From Patescibacteria group bacterium (GTDB lineage Bacteria; Patescibacteriota; Patescibacteriia; Magasanikbacterales; GWA2-37-8): a stretch of 64,000 nucleotides of DNA. Positions 39,220-56,379 of the stretch are shown in pieces. The notes under the pieces are model-generated. The model had not been told where the DNA came from. It did not search any database and was given only the letters and a program-made list of their open reading frames with translations. The position numbers and the translations under genes were made by a program. The number at the start of each line of letters is the position of its first letter. Position 1 is the stretch's first letter. Location of the stretch: positions 32,001-96,000 of the forward strand of contig SCQK01000013.1 of assembly GCA_004321885.1 (NCBI GenBank), given 5' to 3'.

Positions 39220-39582
39220 CTACTTTACCAAGCGATTTTTGCCCAACAAATTTAAAATTTTAACAATCTCTTTCTTTAATTTTGGTATATCGTTCTCAAC
39301 GATTTTCCAAACCAGATTAATATCAACTCCAAAATATTCGTGAATGAGGACGTCCCGCGTACCGGCAATTTTTTTCCATTCTACCTGAGGATGCTTCTTT
39401 TTAAAACCAGCTGGCAAGCTTTTGCATGCTTCACCGATTATTTCCAAGCGGCGAATGATCGCGTCTTGAATTGTGGTTGAATCAAAAAAAAATTTTGGCG
39501 TTAATTTCGCCGCATTTTTTTCTATTTCTTCAATACTGGTTAAAATATATTCAAGAAAAAATTCAGGCTGTCTTTTTGCCAT
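39220..39582 (-). CDS. HepT-like (DUF86) toxin of a MntA/HepT nucleotidyltransferase TA pair.
   Basis: Rx4HxY motif (RDVLIHEY). Overlaps the upstream MntA gene. Confidence 0.8.
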   Translation of the reverse strand: MAKRQPEFFLEYILTSIEEIEKNAAKLTPKFFFDSTTIQDAIIRRLEIIGEACKSLPAGFKKKHPQVEWKKIAGTRDVLIHEYFGVDINLVWKIVENDIPKLKKEIVKILNLLGKNRLVK

Positions 39583-39877
39583 AAATTACCTTTTGCCCGC
39601 TCAAAATCGTCTTTCGCAATAACGGGTTGATGCCGCCGTATGAAAGCACGTCTACTCGCAAACCGAGTTTGTCTTCCAGCTCTAATTTTAAACCAACCAA
39701 ATCTAATAATGATTTATTTTTTTGTAATTTTACAAGGAGATCCAAGTCGCTTTTTTTGGTCTGTTCGCCTCGGGCGAAAGACCCAAAAATCGCGGCCTTT
39801 GTCACCCCGTTTTTTTTAAGAATCGGAAAAATTTTTTTGTTTAACGTTTTTAAGGTCATAGTTGAAATTATTACCAA
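39563..39877 (-). CDS. MntA-like minimal nucleotidyltransferase (antitoxin).
   Basis: GSFARGE...DLDLLV (GSx9-13DxD) motif. Confidence 0.8.
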   Translation of the reverse strand: MVIISTMTLKTLNKKIFPILKKNGVTKAAIFGSFARGEQTKKSDLDLLVKLQKNKSLLDLVGLKLELEDKLGLRVDVLSYGGINPLLRKTILSGQKVIYGKKTA

Positions 39878-39941
39878 TTAGACACCAACCCATTAGGAAA
39901 GCTAAATCCATTATTATTCTAACCCTTTTTTGCTTTTTTGT

Positions 39942-41000
39942 CTATTTTTTCTTCAACGTCGTTATCGGCCTACTTTGAGTAATGTATACTGTACCGCTTT
40001 CCATGGCCCATTCAATATCACAAGGGAAACCATAGTGTTGCTCAATTTTCTTGCACACCTTGGCCACTTCAATAATTTCTTTGCCGGTCAGCTTCTGCTT
40101 ACCCCCCTCTTTCTCACTCAACTCAATCCATTTGTTGGAGTCTCTCCCCTTTATAAGGGGAGAGTTAGTGAGGGGTAATTTCGCTTTCACCAACTTCTTC
40201 GTCTGTACTCCAACATTTATATCTACAATACTCATTTCGCTTTTGGAAACAATATAACTGTCGGGTGTAATCTGGCCGCTCACAATCGCTTCGCCCAATC
40301 CAAACCCGGCCTCAATAATCATCTGGTCGGGGTCTTCAGTAACCGGGTGCACAGTAAAGGCGATGCCCGAAATTTCCGACTGCACCATTTTCTGCACCAC
40401 TACCGCGACCGAAACATAATGGTCAATCAGTTTTTTTTCGTGACGATAAAAAATCGCGCGGGGGGTGAAAAGCGAAGACCAGCATTGCTTAACTTTTTCA
40501 ACAACGTTAACGCGCGTGGTGTTCAAATAGGTTTCCAGCTCCCCGGCCCAACTGGCCACGTCGCTGTCCTCGGCCGTAGCGCTGCTTCTCACCGCCACCA
40601 GGTTGTCATCCTGAACTTGTTTCAGGATCCCCGTTCGCCGTCTGTCATTCAGACCCCGCTTAGCGGGGGAGGAATCCCTCCCGCCCAACTCATCAAACGC
40701 CCCCAATATCTCATTCTCCAAATCTTTCGGCATGGGCGTGTCGTGTATCACATCGCGCAAAACATTACTCGCCTTGTCCACGCTGTTGGTGTCTTCGGGA
40801 TCCACGTCAGCCAATCGCGCCTCAATCTCTTCTTTCAATTTCGTTTCCTCAATAAATCTGTCAAACGCGCTCGCCAATACCACAAAACCCGGCGGCACAC
40901 GCAGTTTCGCTTTAGTCATCTCGCCAAGCGAAGCGCCCTTCCCGCCCGCGCTGGCCACATCTTTCTTGGAAATATCCTTAAAAAATTTTATGTGAGGCAT
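39942..41000 (-). CDS. Stand-alone PEP-synthase/PPDK N-terminal ATP-grasp (nucleotide-binding) domain protein. Carries two in-frame palindromic insertions.
   Basis: VASAGGKGASLGEM...VAVRSSATAED...CDIEWAMESGTVYITQSRP is collinear with the N-domain of the ppsA at 53413..56379 and stops at the domain boundary. Insertions sit at 40143-40177 (family 2) and 40607-40632 (family 3). Confidence 0.8.
   Translation of the reverse strand: MPHIKFFKDISKKDVASAGGKGASLGEMTKAKLRVPPGFVVLASAFDRFIEETKLKEEIEARLADVDPEDTNSVDKASNVLRDVIHDTPMPKDLENEILGAFDELGGRDSSPAKRGLNDRRRTGILKQVQDDNLVAVRSSATAEDSDVASWAGELETYLNTTRVNVVEKVKQCWSSLFTPRAIFYRHEKKLIDHYVSVAVVVQKMVQSEISGIAFTVHPVTEDPDQMIIEAGFGLGEAIVSGQITPDSYIVSKSEMSIVDINVGVQTKKLVKAKLPLTNSPLIKGRDSNKWIELSEKEGGKQKLTGKEIIEVAKVCKKIEQHYGFPCDIEWAMESGTVYITQSRPITTLKKK
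40143..40177. repeat. Family-2 palindromic repeat (TCTCCCCTTTATAAGGGGAGAGTTAGTGAGGGGT), in-frame in the ATP-grasp ORF.
   Basis: Shared with 54371-54409; a variant sits at 27169-27220; a related core lies at 34730-34765. Confidence 0.8.
40607..40632. repeat. Family-3 palindromic repeat (CATCCTGAACTTGTTTCAGGATCCCC), in-frame in the ATP-grasp ORF.
   Basis: Identical to 62591-62616 and near-identical to 63041-63066. Confidence 0.85.
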
Positions 41001-41036
41001 ATTTCAAAAGCAGTCGCTTTGGGCGACTGCCACGAA

Positions 41037-41459
41037 CTATTTAATATATTCACCGATGATCTTCATAAACTTTTTTATATCTCCACTTTCCGCTTTTAGC
41101 TCGGTCAAAAATCGTTTCATGTCAATGTCTTCGTACTTGTGCACTATCCTGTTGCGCAAACCGACTATCGGAGCCAGTTTTAGAGCAAACGCCATGGGCA
41201 AAATTTTATTCTGGCCAAGCGTGATAAATGTGCTTTGATAATCTTCGGGCGCCTGCAAATTTTTCTCGGCGATAATATGCGTGTTGATATCTACCATACA
41301 GTCCACAATGAGCTGAAACAAGCGCTCAATCGCGTGCAATTTCGTCTCATCCTGAATTAAATCAAAAACATCGTCTTCTAAAAGCGCGTCCAACTCTTTC
41401 TGATACCCGCCGATGTCGGTGAGTTTGTTGTAAATAAGCGTTTTGTTGGTCATACACAC
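41037..41459 (-). CDS. HepT-like (DUF86) toxin, second copy.
   Basis: RNRIVHKY (Rx4HxY). Confidence 0.75.
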   Translation of the reverse strand: MCMTNKTLIYNKLTDIGGYQKELDALLEDDVFDLIQDETKLHAIERLFQLIVDCMVDINTHIIAEKNLQAPEDYQSTFITLGQNKILPMAFALKLAPIVGLRNRIVHKYEDIDMKRFLTELKAESGDIKKFMKIIGEYIK

Positions 41460-41462
41460 AAT

Positions 41463-41864
41463 TTAAGCCAAAAATTTTTGAAGTTGTTTATGCCTTAATT
41501 CATAAAGCGGTTTCGCCTCAACATATCTCTTAAACGCGTACATGCGAAATTTGGCAAACTCGCCGACTTTATCCTCGTATAGAGGAACTCCGTCTCGCCC
41601 TATTTGCAGCATAAGTAACGGCGACGCTCCGCGCGCGTTCACCACTTCCACGTCGCCGCGGCCAAATATATGGCAAAAATTTTCCCGCAACCCGGCTTCT
41701 TCATAATAAGAAATTGGCCCTTTTGTTTTGACGGCAATATCAATGTCGCTGTATTTATGCGTTTTTCCGCGCGCGGCCGAACCAAATAATACGACGAAAT
41801 CAAGACCAGCTTGTTTAGCCGCCTTTTTTATCGCTGTCTTTGTTGTTGAATTTATGACTTTCAT
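41463..41864 (-). CDS. MntA-like nucleotidyltransferase antitoxin, second copy.
   Basis: GSAARGKTHKYSDIDIAV. Confidence 0.8.
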   Translation of the reverse strand: MKVINSTTKTAIKKAAKQAGLDFVVLFGSAARGKTHKYSDIDIAVKTKGPISYYEEAGLRENFCHIFGRGDVEVVNARGASPLLMLQIGRDGVPLYEDKVGEFAKFRMYAFKRYVEAKPLYELRHKQLQKFLA

Positions 41865-41908: not shown

Positions 41909-42229
41909 TTAATCAATTTTTCTCACAATTCCCTTCTCCGCGTCCACCTCCACCATATCGCCATTTTTAATCTTCCACAAAATTTCTTCCGAAAGACCGA
42001 CAATCGCCGGTTTGTTATTTTCGCGCGCCACAATAGCCGCGTGAGAAGTTACCCCGCCATGCACTGCCAAAATCGCCTTCACTTTTTTAGCCAGCGCCGC
42101 GTTTGGTTTGACTTGATTCAATAACACAATATTCTCTTCCGTGCAATGAGCAAATTGGTCAGTATGATTAATAATACAAACCAGCCCGCTCGCCTTGCCG
42201 GGACAAGCAGAAATTCCTTTGAATTGCAT
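41909..42229 (-). CDS. Stand-alone PEP-utilizing-enzyme mobile (phosphohistidine swivel) domain protein.
   Basis: ACPGKASGLVCII...HGGVTSHAAIVARENNKPAIVG...GDMVEVDAEKGIVRKID; 106 aa. Confidence 0.8.
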   Translation of the reverse strand: MQFKGISACPGKASGLVCIINHTDQFAHCTEENIVLLNQVKPNAALAKKVKAILAVHGGVTSHAAIVARENNKPAIVGLSEEILWKIKNGDMVEVDAEKGIVRKID

Positions 42230-42492
42230 AAATTATAAATAATGGCTTTGTTCTGCCATTATTTTACTCTTACTCTTGACAAAAGTCAAAAAATGTGCTA
42301 TATTGTTTTGTTGTGGTTTATTGGAAAATTGCGCTTTATTGCGCTATTTTCCGGCTATAACGTGAGTGTGTTGTTTTTTGAAAATTTGAGGTTTCTTTGG
42401 CCAGAAGTTGAATGCGTAATGCGAATATCTTTTGTTCGTAATGCGCAGTCAACTTCCACGCCCCACCGATGGGGCACACCAAGGAGAGGAAG

Positions 42493-43140
42493 ATGAAGAC
42501 CACGGTGCTGTTCACGAGGCACGAGGACCACAAAGACCAGGTCCTCCTGCCGGACGCGGTCGAGAGAGCGCGCATGCGCGGTCTGCGCCTGCGTGAGAAG
42601 GACTACAAGATCGACCGGGTCAAGGGCTCGCCCCTGCCCCGCGCCGATGCCACCGCCACCGAGATGATGACCGGCTACGGCCAGACCACGGACATCGAGC
42701 GCGAGGCGCGCCTCGGCGACTTCAAATCCGATCCAAGGACGCCGAAGGAGGCGGTGAAGGAGCTCAAGGCGAACGCGGTGGCCAAGCACGGGGATGACTC
42801 CGACTCCAACTTGGCCAAGGAGCTCATCAACACCCCCGCCCTGCACGACCTCCTCTTCGCCCGCGCGAAGGAAGGCGCCGAGGCCCTGCTGGAGATGGCC
42901 GCCGCCAACCCGGGCAAGACCATCCTGGCCGTGAGCCACGGCGTGGCCCGCATGGAGATCGTCCTGCGCTACCTGCGGGGCGTCCGCGACACCGCGCTCC
43001 TGGACATCGTCCCGGAGCTCATCGACCGCGGCGAGGTCATCAAGCTGACCTTCGAGGTCTCGGAAGAGTGGGACGACCTCGCCGAGACGCACCCGGCGCG
43101 GGCCGAGTTCGTCTCGGCCGAGCCCCTCCCGCTCCTCTAA
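42493..43140 (+). CDS. Histidine phosphatase superfamily (PGAM/SixA-like) protein on a GC-rich foreign cassette.
   Basis: RHE and SHG motifs (VLFTRHEDH, AVSHGVA). Local GC is about 65% against about 40% in the flanks. RBS AAGGAGAGG lies just upstream. Confidence 0.65.
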   Translation: MKTTVLFTRHEDHKDQVLLPDAVERARMRGLRLREKDYKIDRVKGSPLPRADATATEMMTGYGQTTDIEREARLGDFKSDPRTPKEAVKELKANAVAKHGDDSDSNLAKELINTPALHDLLFARAKEGAEALLEMAAANPGKTILAVSHGVARMEIVLRYLRGVRDTALLDIVPELIDRGEVIKLTFEVSEEWDDLAETHPARAEFVSAEPLPLL

Positions 43141-43261
43141 CCCCCCATCTCGCCCGCGTTCCGCGGGCAACTCCAAACACAACTCACTGACACGGCGGTA
43201 CGCATCGCGCGACCGCCCAACTCTCAATGCTTTTCAACGAAAAACATTGAGCGTTACAAAA

Positions 43262-43293
43262 AATCCTTCGCGTTTACGAAGGATTTTTTGTTT
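43262..43293 (+). terminator. Rho-independent terminator after the histidine phosphatase (TCCTTCG-CGTTTA-CGAAGGA plus a T-run).
   Basis: Read directly. Confidence 0.55.
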
Positions 43294-43319
43294 CTCAATT
43301 TTAATACCAGCGCGCTATT

Positions 43320-44828
43320 TCAAATTCTCCTCACCACCCCTTTATACCCATCCACCTCCAACCAATCCCCATCTTTCACCACCTCGCGCACAAACCTGGT
43401 TTGTATTACTCCCGGAATTTTGGCTTCCCGCGCAAGCGTGGCCGGGTGCGTCGTAATACCATGCCCGCCATCGCAAACCAAACCTGCCGCTTTCATAATA
43501 GCTGTGGAGAAACTGGGTACCACTTGAATACTGACGATAATATCTCCCTTCTGCACTTTATCGCATTCATCGGGATGCAAAATTACACGCGCTGGCCCCT
43601 TGGCGACTCCGGGCGAAACCGGCATACCGGTAAACTCTTTAGCGTTCTTATCTACTTTACAGAAAAGATTAAACAATCTTTCGGCCTGACTTCTCTCAAC
43701 TATCTTCATTGGCTGTCCGCGCCGACAATACCACAACATCAGTTCTATCCTTTCGTTAATATCAAAAGATAATTCTTTTCCTTTGATCAAAGCCGTTCTT
43801 ATCTCTTCTATTTTTAAGTGCCTGACCTGATTCAGACTCAAATAGAATCTGCGGCCAATCTCTTTCAAAACGCTATCAAAATAATACAAAGATTCGGAAA
43901 CGTAGCGCTTGCGCAATTCTTTCAAGTAAGCCACATGGCGCATGGAATTGAAAGAATCTTGTTCTTGCTTGCTGAAGTTCAATCTGGCCAAATATCTCTT
44001 TCTTTCGCTTTCATTTTTAGCCAAGTTACCGACCAATTTCTCATATTCCTTCCTCACATTGAGTATGAGATAGCCGGTCAAACGTTGAACTATCGATCTA
44101 AAATCCAAAACGGAGTCTTCGTAATCACGCGTTACCCAAAAATAATTTCTTTCATGCTTCCTTATAAGATTACTAAGTTTAGAATCTTTTTTAATGGCGT
44201 CTATATCTTTGGTTGTGACCAGAGAAACCCAATGTTTATCGGCTAAAATCCTTAACGCCAATTCAAACAACGCCTTCAATTCAACAGTCGCCACCATGGC
44301 GCTGGGTTCGCGCGTTAAAATGTCCAAAACTACCGCGGCCTTCCTTTTGTCCGCCACTTTGCCTTCCACCATACGTAGCAGGTCGGCGATATAATGGTCT
44401 TCCGTAATCCAAATCCATCCGTACCGAGCGTACACCTCTTTGTATTTTTTTTCATAATCAGCGAAAAATTCGTACAATGTCTGATTGCTTATTCTTTCTA
44501 AATTAGAATTGCCTGCTTTCTTGGCAAAAGCCACTAAACGCGCACCGTAGATATGCTGTTCTTTAATGAACTTGCCGACCAATTTTGAATCATAATGAAT
44601 TTTATCGGACATGTCGCGAGCAACCTCTTCGTAACCCTTCCTACCAATAAACATGTAGTGTACGTTATGCGTGCAAAAATAAAGTACCTCTCCGAGGGCA
44701 AAGCCGACGGCACTTTTCATCTCATTGCAGACAGCCTCCATTGAAAAATAATTAGGAAACGGACTGACGCGTTGGCGTTGAGACTTAAATACCCAGTGGT
44801 CGATATCCGTTGAAAATTTAACTGGCAT
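43320..44828 (-). CDS. Two-domain protein: about 400-aa N-domain of unknown function plus a C-terminal PEP-utilizers swivel domain (paralog 1 of 4).
   Basis: C-terminus: GMPVSPGVAKGPARVIL...DGGHGITTHPATLAREAKIPGV...GDWLEVDGYKGVVRRI. Confidence 0.7.
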   Translation of the reverse strand: MPVKFSTDIDHWVFKSQRQRVSPFPNYFSMEAVCNEMKSAVGFALGEVLYFCTHNVHYMFIGRKGYEEVARDMSDKIHYDSKLVGKFIKEQHIYGARLVAFAKKAGNSNLERISNQTLYEFFADYEKKYKEVYARYGWIWITEDHYIADLLRMVEGKVADKRKAAVVLDILTREPSAMVATVELKALFELALRILADKHWVSLVTTKDIDAIKKDSKLSNLIRKHERNYFWVTRDYEDSVLDFRSIVQRLTGYLILNVRKEYEKLVGNLAKNESERKRYLARLNFSKQEQDSFNSMRHVAYLKELRKRYVSESLYYFDSVLKEIGRRFYLSLNQVRHLKIEEIRTALIKGKELSFDINERIELMLWYCRRGQPMKIVERSQAERLFNLFCKVDKNAKEFTGMPVSPGVAKGPARVILHPDECDKVQKGDIIVSIQVVPSFSTAIMKAAGLVCDGGHGITTHPATLAREAKIPGVIQTRFVREVVKDGDWLEVDGYKGVVRRI

Positions 44829-44858
44829 AATTAACTGATAAAAATTTATTCAATTCTT

Positions 44859-46082
44859 TTAAATTTTTCTCACAATCCCTTTCTCCGCGTCCACCTCCAC
44901 CATATCGCCGTCTTTTAAAACCTTAGTCGCGATTTTCGTGCCGATAATACAAGGTATACCTAACTCACGGCTGACGATGGCAGCATGCGCGGTTAACCCT
45001 CCCTCGTCGGTCACGATAGCGGCCGCCTTTTTGACCGCCGTTATCAACGACGGCGTGGTCATGGATGAAACTAAAATATCACCCTTCTGCATCTTGACCT
45101 GATCTTCCCGCGTGATAACAATTTTGACCTTGCCGCGCACCTTTCCCTTGGATGCCACGAAGCCAATAATTTTATCCACCACCGCTGTTTTGTCTTCTTC
45201 AAAATAAAGCTTAAAATAATTCTGCGCCTTTTCGCCGCTTAAAATTTTTAATTTTCTCCGGCTGATCAGCAATATATAAAATTGTTGGCGGCGTTTCATT
45301 TCGCTTTCGGGCATTTTCTTGCCACCCAAATAATCGCGCAAGCTGACCGGATCGTACCAATCCAATTCAGCCAATTCTTTTTCGTTGTTGATGACCTTTC
45401 GCAAATGATCTAATAGCTGATCGTAAAGATAAGACGACACTCTTTCCCCCATTTCGTAAAAGTAAGTGAACCATGATAAAATTTCCGCAAGCTCTTTTTC
45501 TTTGGCGGTTAATTTTAGCCGTCGTGCAAGATCCTCTCTTTTTCTAATCAATCGCGGACTAGAACAATGCAATTGGTTTAATAGCCCGACAACCGCTTTC
45601 GGCACTGATAAAGTTGATAAGACATCGTCCAGCTCGCGCGCCGATACTTTCGCCGCCAGTAATTTTTTCAGCCGCTGTGCAACAGACTGCTCACCCCAGT
45701 AGCTATAGACAATAGCGCCACGCCCATAAGCGTGATATTTCATGAACAAACTGATGTAACTCCTCAAATCTTTGCGGGTCAAATTTTTATTCTCGTACTT
45801 TCTGCCCCAGTTATAACCTTGGATTAGCAACTTAACTATAATGTCACCCAAACGAGAAATATTTTTCCCTTTAAATTCTCGCAGAATAATTTTCTGCTGT
45901 CTTTTTTTGTCCGCGGGGTCAAAGTATAACGAGGTAACTCTGCCGCGGCCGACAATCGGACTTCTGGCTATTTTCGCCCGCCCAAATTTACCAATGCTCT
46001 GCGCATAAGCAATGGTGCGAAATCCGCGATCAAGCAAAGTATTTTCACGTGTTAATTGTTTGACGTATTTGACTTTGGACAT
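44859..46082 (-). CDS. Unknown N-domain plus C-terminal PEP-utilizers swivel domain (paralog 2).
   Basis: C-terminus: KGKVRGKVKIV...DEGGLTAHAAIVSRELGIPCIIG...GDMVEVDAEKGIVRKI. Confidence 0.7.
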   Translation of the reverse strand: MSKVKYVKQLTRENTLLDRGFRTIAYAQSIGKFGRAKIARSPIVGRGRVTSLYFDPADKKRQQKIILREFKGKNISRLGDIIVKLLIQGYNWGRKYENKNLTRKDLRSYISLFMKYHAYGRGAIVYSYWGEQSVAQRLKKLLAAKVSARELDDVLSTLSVPKAVVGLLNQLHCSSPRLIRKREDLARRLKLTAKEKELAEILSWFTYFYEMGERVSSYLYDQLLDHLRKVINNEKELAELDWYDPVSLRDYLGGKKMPESEMKRRQQFYILLISRRKLKILSGEKAQNYFKLYFEEDKTAVVDKIIGFVASKGKVRGKVKIVITREDQVKMQKGDILVSSMTTPSLITAVKKAAAIVTDEGGLTAHAAIVSRELGIPCIIGTKIATKVLKDGDMVEVDAEKGIVRKI

Positions 46083-46239
46083 AAATTAAAGCTTCCCCAT
46101 AACCCCCTTTAATATAGAACCCCGAAATTTGACAAATAACGTGCACATGTTATACTGATTATGGAATTGATACCGCTTCAAATAGTCCCGTTTATCGGGG
46201 CGTCCCGCAAGGGTAAGGAGCGGTATTTTTGTTTTACTC

Positions 46240-46869
46240 CTATTTCGGCCATCTTTGCACCCAAATCTCTTTGTCTGCCACGTATTTATAATAATTCGTC
46301 CAATCCTTTTTATTTTGAACTTTTCTGCTGACAACGCCGGTGATGTAATCAGCTACCTGCAGCAAATTATTTGATTTTGAACGCTGTTGTTTTAATTTTT
46401 TTATAACTTTCTTCCCGTTCGTATTTAACCGAACGCGCAAATATTTGGCAAGACGGCTGCGAAAATCCGGCGAACCTGACTTATCAAGTATTACTGTGGC
46501 GTTATTCAAATGCGGAAGCGCGTTGTTAAAAACCATCTGGCAGGCGTATTTGTAAAACGATTCTTTGGTGATAAAACCTGGCCCCCACAATTTATTTGGG
46601 TCTTTGTCTATCACGACTGCGAAGTATATAAAGCGATACGGCTGGATGGCCGATAAAAATCTTTCTTTTATCTTATCCGAATTAAAAGAAAAATGAAATT
46701 CAAAATCGGACGGCAAATCAAGCTCTTTTCGCAATAAATTAATCCGTTGGTCGCAAGATAGGGCGTCTTCATTGTCATCAAAAATAACCAAAGAAATTAT
46801 AAAATATCTGCTGGAACCGGATTCTGTTTTACGGCCGGTATCGCCGGCTTCATCTATAAAGACGAGCAT
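46240..46869 (-). CDS. DUF3800-like protein.
   Basis: N-terminal FIDEAGDTG hallmark (an IDESG-type start); 209 aa. Embedded in the paralog operon. Confidence 0.5.
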   Translation of the reverse strand: MLVFIDEAGDTGRKTESGSSRYFIISLVIFDDNEDALSCDQRINLLRKELDLPSDFEFHFSFNSDKIKERFLSAIQPYRFIYFAVVIDKDPNKLWGPGFITKESFYKYACQMVFNNALPHLNNATVILDKSGSPDFRSRLAKYLRVRLNTNGKKVIKKLKQQRSKSNNLLQVADYITGVVSRKVQNKKDWTNYYKYVADKEIWVQRWPK

Positions 46870-46879
46870 AACTGTTAAT

Positions 46880-48361
46880 TCAAATTTTCTTCACAATCCC
46901 CTTTGTCGCATCCACTTCCACCATGTCGCCGTCTCTGAAAACCTTAGTGGCGATTTTCGTGCCAATCACGCAGGGAATACCGAGTTCGCGCGAGACGATA
47001 GCCGCATGGCAGACAATGCCGCCCATATCAGTAACTATCGCCGACGCCTTTTTCATGGCCGCCACGATTTCCGGTATGGTCATTTCCGAAACCAACACAT
47101 TTCCACTTACCATTTTTTTCATATCCTCTATGGTATTTACAATCGTTACTTTCCCTTTGGCCGCGCCCGGAACCGCGGTTTGCCCCCGCAGTTCTTGAAC
47201 TGATAAATCCACTTCTTCCTCACGAGCCATATTCATTTTTGACATTACGTATCTCGCTTCTTCGCCAACAATAAACTTGGATCCATTGGCGTCCACATAT
47301 AGTAAACTATATTTCCAACGTTCATTTAATTCATCCGCGTCGCACTGCCCGCTTCTAATCGCAGAAGGAACTTCTTGTGGCAAAAAATATCGCGCTTGAC
47401 GAATTGAAATAAGCAATCTTTTTGCTACTTCCCGCAGTATTTTATCAAGCGCATAAAATCCTAAAAATTGGTGCTCTTTGCTCCATGCCTTTTGATAAAC
47501 AAGGTCTTTGGTAACGCGAAATAAATGCTTGTGTTTTTCATCAATTTTTAAATTATCAAACCAGGCGTTTTGTTTTTTTTCAGCTTCAAAAAACTGATTT
47601 TTCTGACGCAAAATTTCTTGCTCAATATCGGTCCCAGCTTCTATAATCTCCTGAATATGCTTTACCACATCCTTCTCTGTCCAAGTCGGCCCTTCACAGG
47701 CAAAGGGCAAAAAACAATACTTCCGCGCATGCGCCGCAATTTTTTCCTCCCCAACGGATAATTGAATTTTGCCTTCCACAACTTCCTTCGCCAGCTCATA
47801 AAGTTCCAAATGTTCCTGTGTACCCAAAGCCGGCTTTGTCAGCGTGAGTAAATCAGCCAAAACAAGAACGGCATCTATATCAGGATTAAACTTTTTTAAA
47901 TAGTTCAATAAATATATTCCTAATTGTTCAAACGGAATTTCCAAAAGCCAACTCGGAACACGATATAAGTGTAATTCCGTCTGTAACGGCAACAGTTGTT
48001 CGTAAATTCGCGCGAGTTCTTCGTTGGATAACTTTGATAAATCACTCTCAATAATTTTCCAGGCATAATTTCTAAGCTGCGGTAAAATTTTATCTGATTT
48101 TACATGCATATCATCAATGAGCCGGGGATTTTCCACAATTGCTTCTAAAGTTTTTTTACCGGCCACTATCCATTCATTGCGAATATAGAATAACTTTGTC
48201 GCGCCGTTTTCATACAAAGGAAGGCTGTGTGCCACATCGGCAAGCCCCAGCTTGCTCAATTCGCTTGTCATGGCGCGAAAAGGCGGCTCCAATGTAATGG
48301 GAGGATACTGATACAACTTCTCAATCATTATCCATTCTTTTCTTAACAATTCTTCATTCAT
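46880..48361 (-). CDS. Unknown N-domain plus C-terminal PEP-utilizers swivel domain (paralog 3).
   Basis: C-terminus: AVPGAAKGKVTIV...DMGGIVCHAAIVSRELGIPCVIG...GDMVEVDATKGIVKKI. Confidence 0.7.
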   Translation of the reverse strand: MNEELLRKEWIMIEKLYQYPPITLEPPFRAMTSELSKLGLADVAHSLPLYENGATKLFYIRNEWIVAGKKTLEAIVENPRLIDDMHVKSDKILPQLRNYAWKIIESDLSKLSNEELARIYEQLLPLQTELHLYRVPSWLLEIPFEQLGIYLLNYLKKFNPDIDAVLVLADLLTLTKPALGTQEHLELYELAKEVVEGKIQLSVGEEKIAAHARKYCFLPFACEGPTWTEKDVVKHIQEIIEAGTDIEQEILRQKNQFFEAEKKQNAWFDNLKIDEKHKHLFRVTKDLVYQKAWSKEHQFLGFYALDKILREVAKRLLISIRQARYFLPQEVPSAIRSGQCDADELNERWKYSLLYVDANGSKFIVGEEARYVMSKMNMAREEEVDLSVQELRGQTAVPGAAKGKVTIVNTIEDMKKMVSGNVLVSEMTIPEIVAAMKKASAIVTDMGGIVCHAAIVSRELGIPCVIGTKIATKVFRDGDMVEVDATKGIVKKI

Positions 48362-49836
48362 ATTTTTCTCACAACCCCACTTGTCGCGTCAACCTTCACC
48401 ATATCGCCGTCTTTGAGTACGGAAGTGATTTTTTTCACGCCCACCACGCAGGGAATTTTAAATTCGCGCGCCACAATGGCCGCATGGCAAGTGATGCCGC
48501 CGTCCTCCGTCACGATAGCCGAGGCGCGTTTCATAGCCGGCAACATCGCCGGATAAGTCGTGAGCGCCAACATAATATCTCCTTTTTCCACCTTATCCGC
48601 GTCTGTTAACGATAGAACAACTTTTACTTTGCCTGAAACAAAACCCGGATACGCGGTGGCGCCCTTAAATCCGTCTTCAACATTTAATTTTATTTCTTCA
48701 ATATCCAAGCCGGCTATAATCGCGTCGGCCTCTTTGCCGTAATAATACTTTGTTCCGCTTTCAGTCGCTTCAATCACGCAATGCTTAATTCTCTCATTTA
48801 TTAAATCAATGTCCAATTTGTCACGCAATAGAGCGTTTTCCATTTCGTCCGTCAAAAAATGATTCGCTTGTTTATGCGATATATTCAATCGCTTGGCAAT
48901 TTCTTTGGTGAGCATGTCCAAAACATAGTGCCCATGCCAAATACAATATTTTCTGAGATCCTTAAGCCAAATAATCTCGCGGGCGATGGCGAACAATCGC
49001 GCGAGCTGCGGGGGCAAGTTGATTTCGGAAATTACTTTATTTTGTTCCGCGATGAGTTTCTCGTAGCGTTCTTTTTCTTCTTTGAGCATTTGGTCCGGGT
49101 CAGTTACGCGAGGCAGGGCTTCCTTAACCTGCTCTTCATAATATTTCAAATCATAAGCCGGCCCGATATAGCCGTATGGCGTCCAGCGCCATTTTTGCCA
49201 ATGCTTTGTTATTAATTCTTTGTACTGGATTCCCGCTTTCGCGGGAATGACAACGGCCTTAAGCAACTCCAAAAAATCCAATTGCTCCAACTGGACAAAA
49301 TTCTGTTTAGCCGGAGTGGTAAGCAGAACAAAATATTCTATTGTTTTTACCGGATCATCTATGCCTAAACTTTTTAAATGTTCTCCTAATTTTTGCTTTA
49401 AATACTCCGAAAAAATCATGCCGTCGCTGTCCACAAACCAAGTGGTGGCGATTGATGGAAGATGACCTTGCTCGGTAAGCCATAAAAGCGTTTTGTAGTA
49501 ATCAAAAAGCTCGGCATTGTTTAGCGCGCCAAAATCTTTTCCCACCAAACTTTGAGCGTAATTAAAATAATCCCAATTTAATTTTTCGGTTCGCGCATGC
49601 AATTCCTCTGCCCACTGCGGCTCGGTAATAATTTTTTCCGCAATCCATTTCACCGTCGTTTCTATTACTTCAACCGGCACATACGCCGTATCCCTGTCGT
49701 TTCTATAATCTTGATACCAAACAGTAAATAATTGTTTGCCATTCTTTTTTGGAATATGCGCAAAAATCCCTTGGGGGTAATAGCCCAGCATGTTAAAATT
49801 CACGTCGCGGATATCAAAATTTATTCGCCATTTCAT
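48358..49836 (-). CDS. Unknown N-domain plus C-terminal PEP-utilizers swivel domain (paralog 4).
   Basis: C-terminus: AYPGFVSGKVKVV...EDGGITCHAAIVAREFKIPCVVG...GDMVKVDATSGVVRKI. Confidence 0.7.
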   Translation of the reverse strand: MKWRINFDIRDVNFNMLGYYPQGIFAHIPKKNGKQLFTVWYQDYRNDRDTAYVPVEVIETTVKWIAEKIITEPQWAEELHARTEKLNWDYFNYAQSLVGKDFGALNNAELFDYYKTLLWLTEQGHLPSIATTWFVDSDGMIFSEYLKQKLGEHLKSLGIDDPVKTIEYFVLLTTPAKQNFVQLEQLDFLELLKAVVIPAKAGIQYKELITKHWQKWRWTPYGYIGPAYDLKYYEEQVKEALPRVTDPDQMLKEEKERYEKLIAEQNKVISEINLPPQLARLFAIAREIIWLKDLRKYCIWHGHYVLDMLTKEIAKRLNISHKQANHFLTDEMENALLRDKLDIDLINERIKHCVIEATESGTKYYYGKEADAIIAGLDIEEIKLNVEDGFKGATAYPGFVSGKVKVVLSLTDADKVEKGDIMLALTTYPAMLPAMKRASAIVTEDGGITCHAAIVAREFKIPCVVGVKKITSVLKDGDMVKVDATSGVVRKI

Positions 49837-51004: not shown

Positions 51005-52186
51005 TCAAGCAATCACTCCCCCGCCCAAACATTCACCTTTAAGATAAAATACCGCGAACTGACCCGGGGTGACGGCGCGTTGGGGGTGAGTGAAAGTAAC
51101 TAAAGGGAGGGAAACAGTGCATCTCTGCAAAGGTTGACGGTGACGCAGGCGCACCTGGCATTTTAGCGGGAAATTGGGTGTGTTTCCACTTATCCAATTT
51201 ACGTCTTTGACCCTTGCTTCCATACTGTACAGCATATCGCTTTTCTCGTCGCCGACAATCAGTTCGTTCTTTTTTATATTCTTACCGACAACAAAGAGAG
51301 GCAACGCGCTGGATTCCCCCGTACTTAGTCGGGGGAATGACAAACTGATACGTTGGCCGATGGTGTAAAACGCCAGGCCATCGTGCTGGCCCACGACTTT
51401 ACCCCTCTCTCGCCACCGCCGCGAGGCGGGGCCCCGCCGTGGCGGTGGCTCTCCCCTTGTAAAGGGGAGAGAGAGCACTATGTTCCCGGGTTTGAATTTT
51501 ATCTTTTTCATCAAAAATTCTTTCATCGGCACTTCGCCGATGAAACAAATGCCCATGCTTTCTTCTTTTTCCGCCGTGGGCAAGCCGAATTTTTTTGCCA
51601 GGGCGCGCACCTGTGGTTTGGCATACTCACCGATGGGAAACAAAACGTGGCGCAGTTGTGCTTGAGATAATTGATTCAAAAAATATGTTTGGTCTTTATT
51701 GAGATCTTTTGACTGCAAGAGGTGCAGAACCCCACCCCCCTTTCGTTCCCCCTTTATTAAGGGAGGAAGAAACGCGTAGTGTCCAGTCGCTAATTTATCA
51801 AACCCTAACGCACGGGCTTTATCCAGCCAGGCGCCAAACTTGATGAATTTATTGCACAAAACATCCGGATTGGGCGTGCGGCCGGCCTTGTACTCGCTAT
51901 ACATGTAATCCAAAACATCGCGCTTGTATTTGCGCGTAAAATCCAGCTTCAAAAGTTTAATGCCCAGTTTGGCGGCCACGCGCAAGGCGTCGCGATAATC
52001 GCCGGTCCAACAGCGCGATCCCACCCCCCCTTCGCCCCCCCCTCTGGCATGAGGGGATATTTTCTCATCATAGTTCACCATGAACGCGCCGCTTACGTTA
52101 TATCCTTGCTTAACCAAAAGAGCGGCGGCAACGGACGAATCCACGCCGCCGGACATGGCGACTAAAATTTTTTGCTTTTTTTTCAT
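51005..52186 (-). CDS. mnmA: tRNA-specific 2-thiouridylase MnmA with several in-frame palindromic insertions.
   Basis: ILVAMSGGVDSSVAA PP-loop. Gly/Pro/Arg-rich insertions at 51310-51345 (family 1), about 51410-51478, about 51740-51770 and about 52020-52060. Confidence 0.85.
   Translation of the reverse strand: MKKKQKILVAMSGGVDSSVAAALLVKQGYNVSGAFMVNYDEKISPHARGGGEGGVGSRCWTGDYRDALRVAAKLGIKLLKLDFTRKYKRDVLDYMYSEYKAGRTPNPDVLCNKFIKFGAWLDKARALGFDKLATGHYAFLPPLIKGERKGGGVLHLLQSKDLNKDQTYFLNQLSQAQLRHVLFPIGEYAKPQVRALAKKFGLPTAEKEESMGICFIGEVPMKEFLMKKIKFKPGNIVLSLPFTRGEPPPRRGPASRRWRERGKVVGQHDGLAFYTIGQRISLSFPRLSTGESSALPLFVVGKNIKKNELIVGDEKSDMLYSMEARVKDVNWISGNTPNFPLKCQVRLRHRQPLQRCTVSLPLVTFTHPQRAVTPGQFAVFYLKGECLGGGVIA
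51310..51345. repeat. Family-1 palindromic repeat, copy D, in-frame inside mnmA (encodes LSFPRLSTGESS).
   Basis: The reverse complement equals copy C. Confidence 0.85.
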
Positions 52187-52253: not shown

Positions 52254-52565
52254 TTACCTATCGCGCCTGGCCCGCAGACATTCTCTGCAGTAAACCGGCT
52301 TGTCGCCGGTGGGCTGGAAGGGCAACTCGGTGATCTTGCCTCCGCACTGGGCGCAGGTCAAGTCCACCTGGTACATCTGGCGCGGAGCGCCAAACGAGCG
52401 TCCGCCGCCGCTCGGGCGGGTCTGGCGGTACGCGCGATTGCATTCATTGCAATACACGGGTCTGTCGCCGGACGGCTGGAAGGGCAGCTGTGAAATATGG
52501 GTCCCGCATTTGCCGCAGGAAAGGTCCACATCGTACATCTGCCTAGTGCTGTTGTCAAAAGCCAT
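52254..52565 (-). CDS. Small protein with two tandem zinc-ribbon repeats (CGKCGTHISQLPFQPSGDRPVYCNEC and CAQCGGKITELPFQPTGDKPVYCREC).
   Basis: Internal duplication read directly; paralogous to the motif in 19719..20228. Confidence 0.5.
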   Translation of the reverse strand: MAFDNSTRQMYDVDLSCGKCGTHISQLPFQPSGDRPVYCNECNRAYRQTRPSGGGRSFGAPRQMYQVDLTCAQCGGKITELPFQPTGDKPVYCRECLRARRDR

Positions 52566-52929: not shown

Positions 52930-52984
52930 GGGTCGGTAGTTCAACTGGTTAGAGCATCCCGACTGAGTCGGGAAAGTTGCGGGT
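52930..52984 (+). pseudogene. tRNA-like 5' fragment, from acceptor to the 5' side of the T-stem. Its body is identical to tRNA-Asp, but the anticodon arm is TCCCG-ACTGAGT-CGGGA.
   Basis: GGGTCGGTAGTTCAACTGGTTAGAGCA is shared with tRNA-Asp. No T-loop or 3' acceptor follows it. The anticodon arm resembles the family-1 palindrome core. Confidence 0.55.
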
Positions 52985-53245
52985 ATGGAGGTAATTTTAT
53001 ATTATATTTACAGTAAAAAACTGAATAAATACTACTTAGGAAAAACCAATGATTTGGAGCGACGTTTTATAGAGCATAATAACGGTGAAGAAATTTTTAC
53101 CAGAACTGGTATTCCATGGAAATTAGTTGGATTTATTAAAGCCAGCGCGAAGATAATTAGTAAATTAGAGTATAAACTAAAAAAAGCAAAAAATCCAAAA
53201 TACGTTTATTGGTATTTCAATCAACACGGAACTGTATTGGAATAA
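52985..53245 (+). CDS. Small GIY-YIG nuclease-domain protein (YhbQ/UPF0213-like).
   Basis: ILYYIYSKK...YYLGKTNDLERRFIEHNNG covers the GIY, YIG, Arg, Glu and Asn positions; 86 aa. Confidence 0.6.
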   Translation: MEVILYYIYSKKLNKYYLGKTNDLERRFIEHNNGEEIFTRTGIPWKLVGFIKASAKIISKLEYKLKKAKNPKYVYWYFNQHGTVLE

Positions 53246-53250
53246 TGAGC

Positions 53251-53324
53251 GGGTCGGTAGTTCAACTGGTTAGAGCACTGCCCTGTCACGGCAGAAGTTG
53301 CGGGTTCGAGTCCCGTCCGACCCG
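53251..53324 (+). tRNA. tRNA-Asp (anticodon GTC).
   Basis: Hand-folded cloverleaf. Acceptor GGGTCGG/CCGACCC, U8, D-arm, anticodon stem CTGCC/GGCAG with loop CTGTCAC, T-loop TTCGAGT, discriminator G. No encoded CCA. Confidence 0.85.
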
Positions 53325-53346
53325 CTTATTATTCCATCAAAGCAAG

Positions 53347-53405
53347 CTGGTTAGAGCATCCCGACTGAGTCGGGAAAGTTGCGGGTTCGAGTCCCGTCCG
53401 ACCCG
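53347..53405 (+). pseudogene. tRNA-like 3' fragment, from D-loop to the 3' acceptor. It complements the 5' fragment at 52930-52984 and has the same variant anticodon arm.
   Basis: CTGGTTAGAGCATCCCGACTGAGTCGGGAAAGTTGCGGGTTCGAGTCCCGTCCGACCCG. The 5' acceptor strand is missing. Confidence 0.55.
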
Positions 53406-53412
53406 CATAAAA

Positions 53413-56379
53413 CTATTTAACCGAGAACAAAGTAAACCAGCCGAGCATCTCGTCAAAGGTTTTTTTGTCGCCAGAAATTTCTATGATGTTTTTGGATTTT
53501 TTGAAACCTTGGGGATAAAGCTCCATTAATTTTGTGCCGTCGGCGCGAGTATAAATTTTGGCCGGAATATTTTGCCATACAGTTGTGGTAGACGAACCGG
53601 ACAGAGAACCCCCGGTCGCCTCAGGCGACCTCGGGATGACAGCTGAGGCTATTATAAACCGGCTTAACTTATCGGCCGACTGAAAACGCACCACCTTGTC
53701 CCCGTGCTCCACTGTCCAGGCCGCCGGATATTGCAAAGTAAACCGCGCGAAAGAATCCTCGCTGTACAAACTCTTGGGCTGTTCGCTTTCCCGCTTGCGA
53801 ATCTCGGCCGCCAGCTGTTCCAGCTGCGTTTTCAATTTTCCGGTTTCTTCCACGATGGCTTTTTTCACGTTTTCGTTCACAATCTGATTATTGGGCTGGC
53901 AGGCGTAGCCGCCCAGCGTGGAAAGCAAACCCACCACGCCAAAAATCAACAACAATTTCGTAGCCGCCGCTATTTTTATAATGGCGCCTTTTTTGGCCGA
54001 AACTTTTTTCTCCAGCCCGGCCACCCGCTCGCGCGCCTTTAGCACCGTGTCCGGATTAAGCGAAATGCTGTCTATCCCCTCTTGCACCAAAAAATCGGCG
54101 AACTCGGGATAGTCAGAGGGCGCCTGACCGCAGATGCCCACCTTGCGTCCATACTTGTGCGCCGTGGAAATCACCTGTCGTATCAAAGTTTTTACGGCCT
54201 CGTTTCTTTCATCATACACATGGCTCACCAAAGCGCTGTCGCGATCAACACCTAGGGTCAACTGGGTTAAATCGTTGGAGCCGATGCTAAAGCCGTCAAA
54301 AATCTGGCTGTACTCTTTGGCCAAAATCACGTTGGAAGGAATCTCGCACATCACGTAAACTTTCAAGCCAGACCCCTCACTAACTCTCCCCTTATAAAGG
54401 GGGGAGGAGCTTCCTCGCTCCAATCCGAATTCTTTCATCACAGCCAGCACCTTTTTTCCCTCGGCCACGGTGCGGCAAAACGGCACCATCACGATTATAT
54501 TTTTCAGCCCCCACTCTTCACGCGCCATTTTCAATGCCGCGCATTCCAGCCTAAAACCGGGCTTGTAGGCCGGGTCATAATAGCGCGAAGCCCCGCGCCA
54601 GCCCAGCATGGGGTTTTCTTCTTTGGGCTCGTACAAATGCCCGCCGATAAGCGTGGCGTATTCATTGGTTTTGAAATCAGACAAGCGCACAATAACATCG
54701 CGCGGATAATACGCGGCCGCGATAAAAGCGATGCCCTCGGCCAGCTTGTCCACGCAGTACCGGGCCTTGTCTTTGTAGCCGATGGTCAGCTCGTCAATTT
54801 TGGCTTTCAATTCCCGGTCCGCCAATTTTTTGTAATTTACCAAAGCGAGCGGATGGATTTTTATAAAATTGGTGAAAATAAATTCCTCGCGCGCCAGGCC
54901 CACGCCGTCACTGGGGATATGCGACAAAGCAAAAGCGCTGCCCGGGTCGCCCACGTTCATCATTATTTTGGTGCGGGTTTTGGCAATGGCTTTTATTTCC
55001 TGTTTTTCTATTTCAAAAGGCAGGCGCCCTTTGTACACATAACCGGCCTCGCCCTCGGCGCAGGAAACAGTCACTTCCTGCCCGGGCTTCACAATCTGAC
55101 GCGCCCTGGCCGCGCCCACCAGGCACGGCGTGCCCAGCTCGCGGCTGACAATAGCCGCGTGCGAGGTCTTTCCCCCCTGCTCCGTGACAATGGCCGAGGC
55201 AATGCGCATTATCGGCTCCCAATCCGGGTCCGTAATGCGCGTAATCAAAACTTCGCCTGGCCGAAAGCTCTTCATCTGCCTGGGCGAGTTTATTACCCGC
55301 GCTTTGCCCTGACCGATTTTTTGCCCGATGCTGATTCCCTCCACCAAAACTTTGCCTTTTTGTTTCAAATGGTACTGCTCTATTACATTTATATTGTCGC
55401 GCGAACGCACTGTTTCGCTGCGCGCCTGCACGATATAGAGTTTTCCGCTCCGTCCGTCTTTGGCCCACTCTATATCCATGGGCCGCTGGTAATGCTCTTC
55501 TATTTGCATGCCCCACTTGGCCAGTTGCAAGACTTCGTCCGGGGAAACGCAGAACCGGTGCTGGTCCGGCATTTTTACTGTTTCCTGCCTGGTGCCTGTT
55601 TTTCCGTAAACAAGTTTTACTTCTTTGCTCCCCAGCCGCTTGCTGATGATTGATTTCAATCCGCGCCGAACCCCATCTTTGAAAACAAAAAACTGGTCCG
55701 GTATCACCCGGCCCTTGACCACATATTCGCCCAAGCCATAAGCCGCGTTTATAAGCACCACGCCCTTAAAACCCGACTCGGTGTCCAGAGTGAACATCAC
55801 GCCGCTGGCGCCCAAATCCGAACGCACCATTTCCTGCACGCAAACCGAAAGCGCCACAGCCGCGTGGTCAAAGCCCTTGTCCACGCGATAGGAAATGGCG
55901 CGGTCCGTAAAAAGAGAAGCAATACATTTCTGGCAGGCTAAAATAAGTTCATCGGCGCCGACGACATTCAAATAGGTTTCCTGCTGGCCGGCAAAACTGG
56001 CGTCGGGCAAATCCTCGGCCGTGGCCGACGAACGCACGGCCACTGAACTCTTGCCCAATTCTTTATACGCCGCTTTCAATTCATCTGCTATTATTCCTGG
56101 AAACTCGGCGCTTAAAACCATCTGGCGAATCTTGGCGCCGGCCGCGGCCAGCGATTTCACGTTTTTGCCGTCGGTCTTGTTTAGAATTTCTTTTATTTTT
56201 TTATCCAATTTGTCCTCACGCAAAAAAAGCCGGTAGGCGTCGGCAGTAAGAGCGAACCCGTTTGGCACGGCCACTCCATTGGCAGTCAAATTATTATACA
56301 TCTCGCCCAGCGACGCGGTCTTGCCGCCCACGCTGGGAATGTCTTTGATGCCGAGTTCCTTAAACCAGCGGATATACAT
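53413..56379 (-). CDS. ppsA: Phosphoenolpyruvate synthase (pyruvate, water dikinase), full length, with an extra C-terminal extension of about 190 aa that contains a TM helix.
   Basis: ATP-grasp N-domain, swivel (QGGKTSHAAIVSRELGTPC) and PEP-binding TIM barrel (GFSIGSNDLTQL...GICGQAPSDYPEF). A family-2 insertion sits at 54371-54409. The C-terminal tail reads IIKIAAATKLLLIFGVVGLLSTLGGYAC and so on. Confidence 0.9.
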   Translation of the reverse strand: MYIRWFKELGIKDIPSVGGKTASLGEMYNNLTANGVAVPNGFALTADAYRLFLREDKLDKKIKEILNKTDGKNVKSLAAAGAKIRQMVLSAEFPGIIADELKAAYKELGKSSVAVRSSATAEDLPDASFAGQQETYLNVVGADELILACQKCIASLFTDRAISYRVDKGFDHAAVALSVCVQEMVRSDLGASGVMFTLDTESGFKGVVLINAAYGLGEYVVKGRVIPDQFFVFKDGVRRGLKSIISKRLGSKEVKLVYGKTGTRQETVKMPDQHRFCVSPDEVLQLAKWGMQIEEHYQRPMDIEWAKDGRSGKLYIVQARSETVRSRDNINVIEQYHLKQKGKVLVEGISIGQKIGQGKARVINSPRQMKSFRPGEVLITRITDPDWEPIMRIASAIVTEQGGKTSHAAIVSRELGTPCLVGAARARQIVKPGQEVTVSCAEGEAGYVYKGRLPFEIEKQEIKAIAKTRTKIMMNVGDPGSAFALSHIPSDGVGLAREEFIFTNFIKIHPLALVNYKKLADRELKAKIDELTIGYKDKARYCVDKLAEGIAFIAAAYYPRDVIVRLSDFKTNEYATLIGGHLYEPKEENPMLGWRGASRYYDPAYKPGFRLECAALKMAREEWGLKNIIVMVPFCRTVAEGKKVLAVMKEFGLERGSSSPLYKGRVSEGSGLKVYVMCEIPSNVILAKEYSQIFDGFSIGSNDLTQLTLGVDRDSALVSHVYDERNEAVKTLIRQVISTAHKYGRKVGICGQAPSDYPEFADFLVQEGIDSISLNPDTVLKARERVAGLEKKVSAKKGAIIKIAAATKLLLIFGVVGLLSTLGGYACQPNNQIVNENVKKAIVEETGKLKTQLEQLAAEIRKRESEQPKSLYSEDSFARFTLQYPAAWTVEHGDKVVRFQSADKLSRFIIASAVIPRSPEATGGSLSGSSTTTVWQNIPAKIYTRADGTKLMELYPQGFKKSKNIIEISGDKKTFDEMLGWFTLFSVK
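54371..54409. repeat. Family-2 palindromic repeat, in-frame in ppsA (encodes SSPLYKGRVSEGSG).
   Basis: The reverse complement matches 40143-40177. Confidence 0.8.

Follow-up and report, generated by a model that had tools for sequence, protein, structure and literature searches.

The mnmA gene, which encodes the tRNA 2-thiouridine(34) synthase, occupies positions 51005 to 52186 on the minus strand of a 64-kb stretch of contig SCQK01000013.1 from a Patescibacteria group bacterium (64,000 nucleotides, here called the window), and its coding sequence contains GC-rich repeat units at several sites. The protein is 393 aa long, followed by a stop codon that a first-pass annotation had counted to give 394 aa, and is 100% identical to an NCBI Patescibacteria entry named tRNA 2-thiouridine(34) synthase MnmA. 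The nearest relatives, with 55-64% identity, are from Candidatus Magasanikbacteria and other Patescibacteria, and MnmA in the PDB was matched with E = 3e-84 (phmmer). Pfam domains PF03054, PF20259 and PF20258 are recorded on the identical NCBI protein, corresponding to the three-domain MnmA fold (catalytic, central and C-terminal barrel).

The catalytic motifs of the enzyme are complete. The PP-loop ATP-binding motif SGGVDSS (aa 12-18; 52133-52153, minus strand), already reported as intact, falls in invariant columns of the homologue alignment. Both catalytic cysteine motifs, PNPDVLCNK (C111; 51848-51874, minus strand) and GICFIGE (C214; 51533-51553, minus strand), are also intact and align with the motifs of 2hma and 9hlv; we take C111 and C214 to correspond to Cys102 and Cys199 of E. 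coli, respectively. An AlphaFold2 model, built on 29 sequences and with a mean pLDDT of 81, has a core that superposes on the MnmA crystal structures 2hma, 2det and 2der with target-normalised TM-scores of 0.85-0.87. Catalytic motifs and modelled MnmA fold are both preserved.

Five GC-rich repeat units were found on the coding (minus) strand of mnmA, distributed over four sites, all of them in frame and without stop codons. The GC content of the inserted DNA is 66.7%, compared with 47.7% for the remaining gene. Site 1 (52020-52057; peptide ISPHARGGGEGGVGS, aa 43-57) contains a degenerate copy of a family here named triplex motif (TM), with the sequence TCCCCTC-ATGCCA-GAGGGGGGGG-CGAA-GGGGGGGTGGG, which encodes SPHARGGGEGGVG and includes a G8 and a G7 run. 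Site 2 (51730-51769; peptide LPPLIKGERKGGG, aa 140-152) contains another degenerate TM copy, CTTCCTCCCTT-AATA-AAGGGGGAA-CG-AAAGGGGGGTGGGG. Site 3 (51400-51475; peptide FTRGEPPPRRGPASRRWRERG, aa 242-262) is a composite, in which a TM unit (Y arm CTCTCCCCTT, loop TAC, R1 arm AAGGGGAGAG, spacer CGA and R2 arm GAGAGGGGTA) is split after R1, with a nested 36-nt GC palindrome (51413-51448) placed ahead of the spacer. This palindrome, CCACCGCC-ACG-GCGGGGCCCCGCC-TCGC-GGCGGTGG, has arms detected at 51412-51423 and 51438-51449, and spans exactly 12 codons, read as PPPRRGPASRRW. Site 4 (51309-51343; peptide LSFPRLSTGESS, aa 282-293) holds a REP-like hairpin of the GTCAT superfamily, referred to as family 1, with the sequence TTGTCATTCCCCCGACTAAGTACGGGGGAATCCAG.

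The first-pass annotation had described four in-frame palindromic segments in this gene, and all four were recovered at those places on the coding strand and free of stops. Their description as palindromes held in part. Site 3 and the family-1 hairpin at site 4 are clearly structured, with fold energies well below those of dinucleotide shuffles (z = -6.0 with 0/200 shuffles at site 3, and z = -3.0 at site 4), while the segments at sites 1 and 2 are weak, with stems of 6-7 bp and folding no better than that of shuffles. By stem, site 3 has 10 bp, site 1 has 7 bp, and site 2 has 7 bp including a G-T pair. A plain palindrome is an inadequate description of sites 1 and 2, whose family membership rests on shared architecture. 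Site 3, taken earlier as one palindromic segment, is present but consists of two elements, and instead of plain separate palindromes the gene carries one three-arm family represented by three segments, two of them degenerate, for a total of five units.

Two other sequence features of the gene were recorded. The G7 (52024-52030), G8 (52035-52042) and G6 (51735-51740) runs on the coding strand all come from repeat units; homopolymer tracts of this size are slippage-prone, and could give frequent frameshifts or phase variation in an essential-type gene such as mnmA. A perfect 10-bp hairpin, TTTCATCGGC-ACTTC-GCCGATGAAA, is located at 51521-51545 within the conserved active-site segment FIGEVPMK and is not an insertion. 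It is probably due to chance or codon choice, its counterpart in the orthologue L001 being by eye not self-complementary.

The repeat-derived segments fall in variable loops of MnmA. In phmmer alignments to 2hma, 9hlv and 2der, gaps totalling 10 residues lie opposite site 1 and gaps totalling 6 residues opposite site 2; in the alignment to solved MnmA, site 3 falls in a break of ~23 residues between aligned blocks and site 4 in a variable stretch. Distances between conserved anchors in an alignment of the 120 closest MnmA homologues identified five loops that are hypervariable in length. They are most often 9, 13, 12, 13 and 22 residues long, against 19, 21, 33, 19 and 18 residues in the window protein, where four of the five are extended, and it is in these four that the segments expected to occupy loops were located. 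At site 3 the loop has 12 residues in 91 of the 120 relatives, against 33 here. The extra residues at sites 1 to 4 (+10, +8, +21 and +6) add up to ~45 aa, and their subtraction from 393 leaves 348 aa, a size that matches insertion-free relatives (337-357 aa). The segments are absent from most of the 120 relatives, and thus do not represent conserved MnmA sequence of many taxa.

In the AlphaFold2 model, all four segments form coil between regular secondary-structure elements. The pLDDT is below 50 at residues 48-55 (site 1), 241-259 (site 3) and 286-293 (site 4), and averages 57 over the block 141-150 (site 2). The four occupied loops are therefore predicted to be disordered surface coil.

The TM units share a plan in which a pyrimidine arm (Y) and a loop of 3-6 nt are followed by the complementary purine arm (R1), and a short spacer separates R1 from a further G-rich arm (R2). 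The R2 arm is complementary to nothing and instead mirrors R1, so that a G faces G, and an A faces A or T. Canonical copies have arms of 7-10 nt and a 3-nt second loop (TTA, CGA or CAG), from which mnmA sites 1 and 2 depart. By eye, the poly-G arms of these two sites are shifted out of register by one base. At site 3, once the nested palindrome is removed, R2 mirrors R1 at 10/10 positions with a 3-nt spacer. A related 36-mer, TCCCCCTCT-GCCCG-AGAGGGGG-TTA-GGGGGAGT, is also built on this plan.

Mirror arms were counted over 224.5 kb, made up of the window and 27 Magasanikbacteria-like loci. Of the 27 pyrimidine/purine hairpins, 17 are followed at 2-4 nt by a third arm that is a perfect mirror, against 0.5 expected from shuffled tails, and 13 distinct R1/R2 pairs have covarying non-G positions, for example AAGGAGGGG with GGGGTGGTT and GAGGGGAGGA with AGGTGGGGTG. 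These arm pairs were counted by a purpose-written script; MAFFT could not put the TM units in structural register. The strict C-arm/G-arm/G-arm pattern has four matches in the window (0.2 expected), two of them in mnmA. The nucleic-acid design of the TM family is constrained, as seen in its compensating stems and mirror third arm. By analogy with the BoxC/PIT/TMECO repeats of E. coli, described below, the TM units of the window may fold as triplexes, a structure outside the Watson-Crick and wobble pairs modelled by ViennaRNA. A G-quadruplex formed by the G-rich arms is less likely, since it does not explain the mirror covariation of non-G positions.

This constraint could mean that the units serve the host as nucleic acid, acting as pause sites for replication or transcription, as recombination or instability hotspots, or as a G-tract on/off switch of mnmA, with the peptides as a by-product. 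The covariation of the second and third arms, which implies a structure under constraint, would fit such a role, as would the presence of the G8, G7 and G6 runs within the mnmA coding sequence and the reports that TMECO-type motifs are associated with local genomic instability and that R-type triplexes can arrest polymerases (PMC4666352). However, the constraint is equally explained by the needs of the element's own propagation, and scattered copies, sense as well as antisense, are found in unrelated genes. BoxC/PIT elements showed no promoter, terminator or polymerase-blocking activity in vivo, and the reported failure of purine-motif triplexes to form in RNA speaks against a role at the mRNA level (PMC4666352). 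Taken together, service to the host as nucleic acid seems quite unlikely.

Repeats of both kinds are found along the window. Perfect GC-rich hairpins with stems of at least 7 bp number 41, against 1-12 in block shuffles. Nine GTCAT-hairpin units and ten TM-type units were identified, 16 of them intragenic and three intergenic: nine of the ten TM-type units are inside open reading frames (ORFs), and seven of the nine GTCAT units are inside genes. This split is what chance predicts at a coding density of 90.5% (p = 0.27). The host genes are priA, fmt, the Wzy_C gene, rpoA, alaS, the PPDK_N gene, a PEP-utilizers-domain paralogue (48358-49836), the full-length PEP synthase gene, cysS and mnmA; intragenic GTCAT units are located in priA, alaS, the PPDK_N gene, the same PEP-utilizers-domain paralogue and mnmA, and twice in cysS. 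The GTCAT superfamily has conserved non-complementary flanks (TGTCAT... and ...ATCCAG or ATCCCC), with variable, compensating stems. The mnmA site 4 unit is identical at 35/35 nt to a copy in alaS (38029-38063), which lies opposite to the orientation of its host gene and reads LDSPVLSRGND; this identity points to recent copying.

The Wzy_C gene (27354-28769) also has a hairpin with a 14-bp stem, GCCACCACACCAAA-GAT-TTTGGTGTGGTGGC, at 27665-27697 on the plus strand. It is flanked by mirror G-rich runs (GGGGAGGGG ... GGGGGTGGGG, 27642-27710) without a pyrimidine arm, and reads KRGGAGHHTKDFGVVAGGGV. Its GCCACC...GGTGGC stem resembles the nested palindrome of mnmA site 3.

All 16 intragenic units of the window preserve the frame and are free of stop codons, and no gene is split at a unit. 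Comparison with solved homologues confirmed insertions in CysRS (+10 aa), AlaRS (+8 aa) and the PPDK_N protein (+4 aa), so that in-frame insertion, judged from sequence, would be a genome-wide feature not special to mnmA. Nevertheless, mnmA makes up 2% of the coding DNA but carries four of the 16 intragenic units (binomial p = 2.6e-4; 0.015 corrected for 58 genes), and the loops of its orthologues carry other repeat-derived peptides, both of which bear out its earlier description as a hotspot. A metagenome scan for the family-1 31-mer gave three matches, all inside ORFs, a number too small for a census.

Compact, structured GC-rich elements within an AT-richer gene could in principle be excised from the mRNA or bypassed by the ribosome, like the GC-rich 'byp' elements of some yeast mitochondria. 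Elements removed in this way would not need to keep the frame or avoid stops, whereas 16/16 intragenic units do so, and dozens of independent insertions in the 120 homologues keep the downstream domains in frame. The Rfam scan of the whole window at gathering thresholds returned tRNA-Asp only, with no match in mnmA. Removal or bypass of the units is thus regarded as very improbable.

The orthologues differ in the units that they carry. In L001, L081 and L082, which share 89-92% nucleotide identity, a 33-nt TM unit is present at site 3 of L001 only, in the same loop and at nearly the same codon as in the window gene, and L082 alone has a ~90-nt TGTCAT...ATGACA composite at site 4. The 36-mer TCCCCCTCTGCCCGAGAGGGGGTTAGGGGGAGTGGG was found in three other genomes, all of which have it at site 3 and two of which also have it at site 1, and is always read as SPSAREGVRGSG; it is 89-100% identical between genomes, compared with 53-77% for the 150-nt flanks. 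The five loops of relatives hold translated repeat families, including SPLGRGRGGL, VIPAQAGIQ...LDSRFHGND, CHSERSEESL, CHSDRSGGIPY and CHCEEAKGRRSNL.

When the loops are masked, a neighbour-joining tree of the 120 homologues requires 17 state changes for the 18 carriers of a site 3 insertion, compared with 17.1 under random placement; the tree is weakly resolved, and 17 changes is therefore an upper bound on turnover. A single ancient insertion at site 3 is disfavoured by the scattered carriers, by a unit more conserved than its flanks, and by empty sites in genes at 90-92% identity. The sequence comparisons show that the units turn over fast in the same MnmA loops of relatives, and that they belong to families dispersed in the host genome and in related Patescibacteria genomes.

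These observations also bear on whether the segments are dispersed insertions at all, or ancient lineage-specific MnmA sequence, local slippage products or artefacts of metagenome assembly. The genome is metagenome-assembled, repeats can mislead assemblers, and sites 1 and 2 are low-complexity G/C runs. Against this, the identical protein was independently deposited at NCBI, equivalent units were seen in many independent assemblies of differing source, identical or near-identical copies are present in other genes, and most relatives lack the segments; moreover, mirror repeats are not made by slippage or template switching. An origin of this kind is extremely improbable.

Several arrangements in relatives were recorded apart from these comparisons. 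Nesting was observed, with PARNALACEAGG inside both the SPLGRGRGGL unit and the SPSAR...GVRGGGSG unit of one protein (P0005 sites 2 and 3; P0059). Site 4 can be taken up by composites of 90-130 nt that have TGTCAT...ATGACA ends (L016:2733-2864; L082). The mnmA loops of L004, L005, L008 and L010 have AT-rich tandem repeats in place of GC palindromes, for example TTTCCAA x4, ACGGATT repeats and AAGTC-type repeats encoding SQKSIKS.

The reading that we favour, with a probability of roughly three in four, is that a functional mnmA gene has been colonised by five repeat units of non-coding type (three TM units, one nested palindrome and one REP-like hairpin), which are translated as flexible loops. 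As DNA repeats that are selfish or prone to instability, the units would spread or be gained and lost at the DNA level, probably through a single-stranded DNA stage in which polymerases stall at the folded hairpin or triplex, or a putative enzyme recognises it. In a genome that is 90% coding, they would land in genes about as often as chance predicts, and purifying selection would keep only the copies that have a multiple-of-three length, are stop-free and sit in tolerant loops. Apparent hotspots would then arise because selective filtering leaves units only in such loops, and the simplest cause of the mnmA hotspot is the unusual tolerance of five MnmA loops. Translation of the surviving units would lengthen the loops by flexible Gly/Pro/Arg/Ser-rich sequence, at no cost or a mild cost to MnmA.

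Several observations weigh against this explanation. No target-site duplication is visible at the sole clean filled/empty pair (L001 versus L081 and L082), and Pfam scans found no transposase or RAYT among the 58 window ORFs of at least 100 aa, in which the only recombinase is a XerC/D-like integrase (9089-10042). Sites 1 and 2 fold no better than dinucleotide shuffles (z = -1.2 and +0.5 for the two) and match the mirror rule at 6/7 positions, not better than shuffled tails. The copy in fmt shows zero net length change with respect to the solved homologue 4iqf and was excluded from the confirmed insertions, so some copies may replace native sequence instead of adding to it. The neighbour-joining tree is poorly resolved, its sequences all being 60-75% identical, and we infer translation of the units from frame preservation alone. 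Finally, the orientation of TM units relative to the gene (17 sense and 5 antisense, p about 0.01-0.02) and the use of a single reading frame by the 36-mer hint at selection or targeting beyond tolerance. The 12-codon unit length is another hint beyond passive tolerance.

Selection of this sort is the core of a different explanation, in which the Arg/Gly-rich loop extensions are adaptive, selected for tRNA binding or partner interactions, with repeat DNA as raw material or co-opted. Several of the host proteins do bind tRNA (MnmA, AlaRS, CysRS and Fmt), the same loops are hit repeatedly, the 36-mer gives the same peptide wherever it is found, and the TM sense bias points the same way. However, units are also found between genes, in the membrane protein Wzy_C and in PEP-utilising enzymes, and antisense units yield unrelated peptides. 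Orthologues at 90-92% identity differ in whether they carry the units, the site 3 insertion is missing from 91/120 relatives, the segments are predicted to be disordered, and the nucleotide identity of the units is above what peptide conservation alone would require. Adaptive loops are accordingly considered unlikely, and colonisation by DNA repeats filtered for tolerance is retained as the preferred explanation.

Other features of the window were also recorded. Directly upstream of mnmA, on the minus strand (52254-52565), a gene with a 101-nt direct repeat inside it encodes a small protein that has two treble-clef zinc fingers (PF23477); this gene has the same position in L081, L087, L089, L090 and L091, indicating conserved synteny with mnmA. 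A second zf_Tbcl_2 gene is found at 19719-20228. On the plus strand, a tRNA-Asp-like gene is apparently split (52930-53406), with a 5' part at 52930-52985 and a 3' part at 53342-53406, which have a 40-nt direct repeat in common (52945 and 53347). The two parts enclose an ORF for a GIY-YIG nuclease (52985-53245; Pfam E = 1e-9) and an intact tRNA-Asp(GTC) (53251-53325). The split gene was called by neither ARAGORN nor Rfam, and its anticodon arm, TCCCGAC-TGA-GTCGGGA, has the CCCGAC-TNA-GTCGGG core of the family-1 hairpins. Five tandem paralogues ending in a PEP-utilizers mobile domain are located at 41909-49836 on the minus strand, and two HepT/nucleotidyltransferase toxin-antitoxin pairs and a DUF3800 gene lie among them. 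A stand-alone PPDK_N gene (39220-41864) adjoins them, and a full-length PEP synthase gene is present at 53413-56379.

If colonisation is the correct explanation, repeats of non-coding type, including a design that folds as a triplex in E. coli, can reside in the essential genes of genomes that are ultra-small and 90% coding, and end up as protein loops. They would be a concrete means by which loop lengths evolve rapidly in the proteins of Patescibacteria, and would map five naturally permissive insertion sites in MnmA, of use for protein engineering. Since the presence of units differs between near-identical orthologues, they could serve as fine-scale strain markers. Repeat-derived Gly/Pro/Arg segments should be masked in alignments, and short ORFs created by the repeats should be treated as spurious. 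Replication and transcription through triplex or hairpin motifs and G8 tracts in an essential gene become a testable question, as does any enzyme that may move the units.

The TM family is most closely comparable in architecture to BoxC/PIT/TMECO, a motif of 36-37 nt in which three 9-nt stems, the first C-rich and the other two G-rich, are joined by a loop of 3-6 nt and then by one of 3 nt, TTA or CCG (PMC4666352). TMECO folds in vitro as a stable class II purine-motif triplex, as determined by circular dichroism and nuclear magnetic resonance (NMR), with G-G, A-A or T-A triads in the mirror arm, and NMR excluded a G-quadruplex (Holder et al. 2015, PMC4666352). It is present in 3610 copies in 262 proteobacterial genomes, is always intergenic in E. 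coli K-12, and is not linked to transposons (PMC4666352). The window TM family shares the five-part architecture and the size, and several of its copies share the TTA second loop. Both families are multicopy and dispersed, have loops less conserved than stems, and vary in presence between close relatives without an associated transposase. They differ in stem sequences and in phylum, Patescibacteria instead of Proteobacteria, and the TMECO consensus CCCTCNCCC-N3-6-GGGNGAGGG-N3-GGGNGAGGG has 0 matches in the window. Moreover, nine of the ten window TM units are in genes, in frame and apparently translated, while TMECO is intergenic. The window TM units thus share the TMECO architecture without belonging to the E. 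coli sequence family.

A further-reaching proposal, which we put forward tentatively, is that Patescibacteria may carry an undescribed class of BoxC/TMECO-like intrastrand-triplex cassettes adapted to intragenic life. It is suggested by the unit length of ~36 nt (12 codons), the sense bias and a 36-mer that is stop-free in 4/6 reading frames (read from the sequence), as well as by near-identity between genomes whose host proteins are ~70% identical, by repeated landing in the same few loops of housekeeping enzymes, and by the acceptance of nested palindromes. If this were true, they would be the first translated triplex-motif repeats and a natural loop-insertion mutagenesis system, with a mobilising mechanism maybe specific to DNA structure.

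The insertion mode recalls the Rickettsia palindromic elements (RPE), which are ~150 bp long, carry a conserved peptide module, and are in-frame inserts compatible with the fold and function of the host protein (PMC10969869). Like RPE, the window units are dispersed palindromic repeats in frame in many unrelated housekeeping genes of a reduced genome, and are likewise in predicted surface loops; in contrast, they are 30-40 nt long (76 nt when nested), GC-rich, of unrelated sequence and from another phylum, and some have a three-arm triplex design.

The family-1 (GTCAT) units resemble REPs in being 25-35-nt GC-rich imperfect multicopy palindromes with conserved flanks, and relatives have inverted doublets similar to REPINs (VIPAQAGIQ...LDSRFHGND at site 2 of P0042, and a similar pair in L084). 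REPs, however, are extragenic by definition and have GTAG or CGTC tags (PMC3733652). The window units differ in being tagged TGTCAT, in that 7/9 are intragenic, and in that no RAYT was found in the 64-kb window.

Mobile GC clusters of yeast mitochondria (for example GC42) are sporadic between strains, and have a constrained hairpin, loop changes, merging or nesting, and an AG target dinucleotide (PMC4478555). The window units are similar to them as ~40-nt hairpin-forming GC-rich units with sporadic presence in an AT-richer genome, and in their nested palindromes. The yeast clusters, however, belong to a eukaryotic organelle and are mostly intergenic, and the AG target reported there is not paralleled by a flanking duplication in the window family. 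A MITE was considered and set aside, there being no target-site duplication at L001 versus L081/L082 and no transposase in the window.

A literature search for in-frame palindromic elements in Patescibacteria or the Candidate Phyla Radiation, or for the characteristic peptides, returned nothing. The comparisons support a new combination, in which RPE-like in-frame insertion, a BoxC/TMECO-like triplex motif and a REP-like hairpin all occur in Patescibacteria, and bring inside genes a triplex-forming repeat design that until now has been described only between them.

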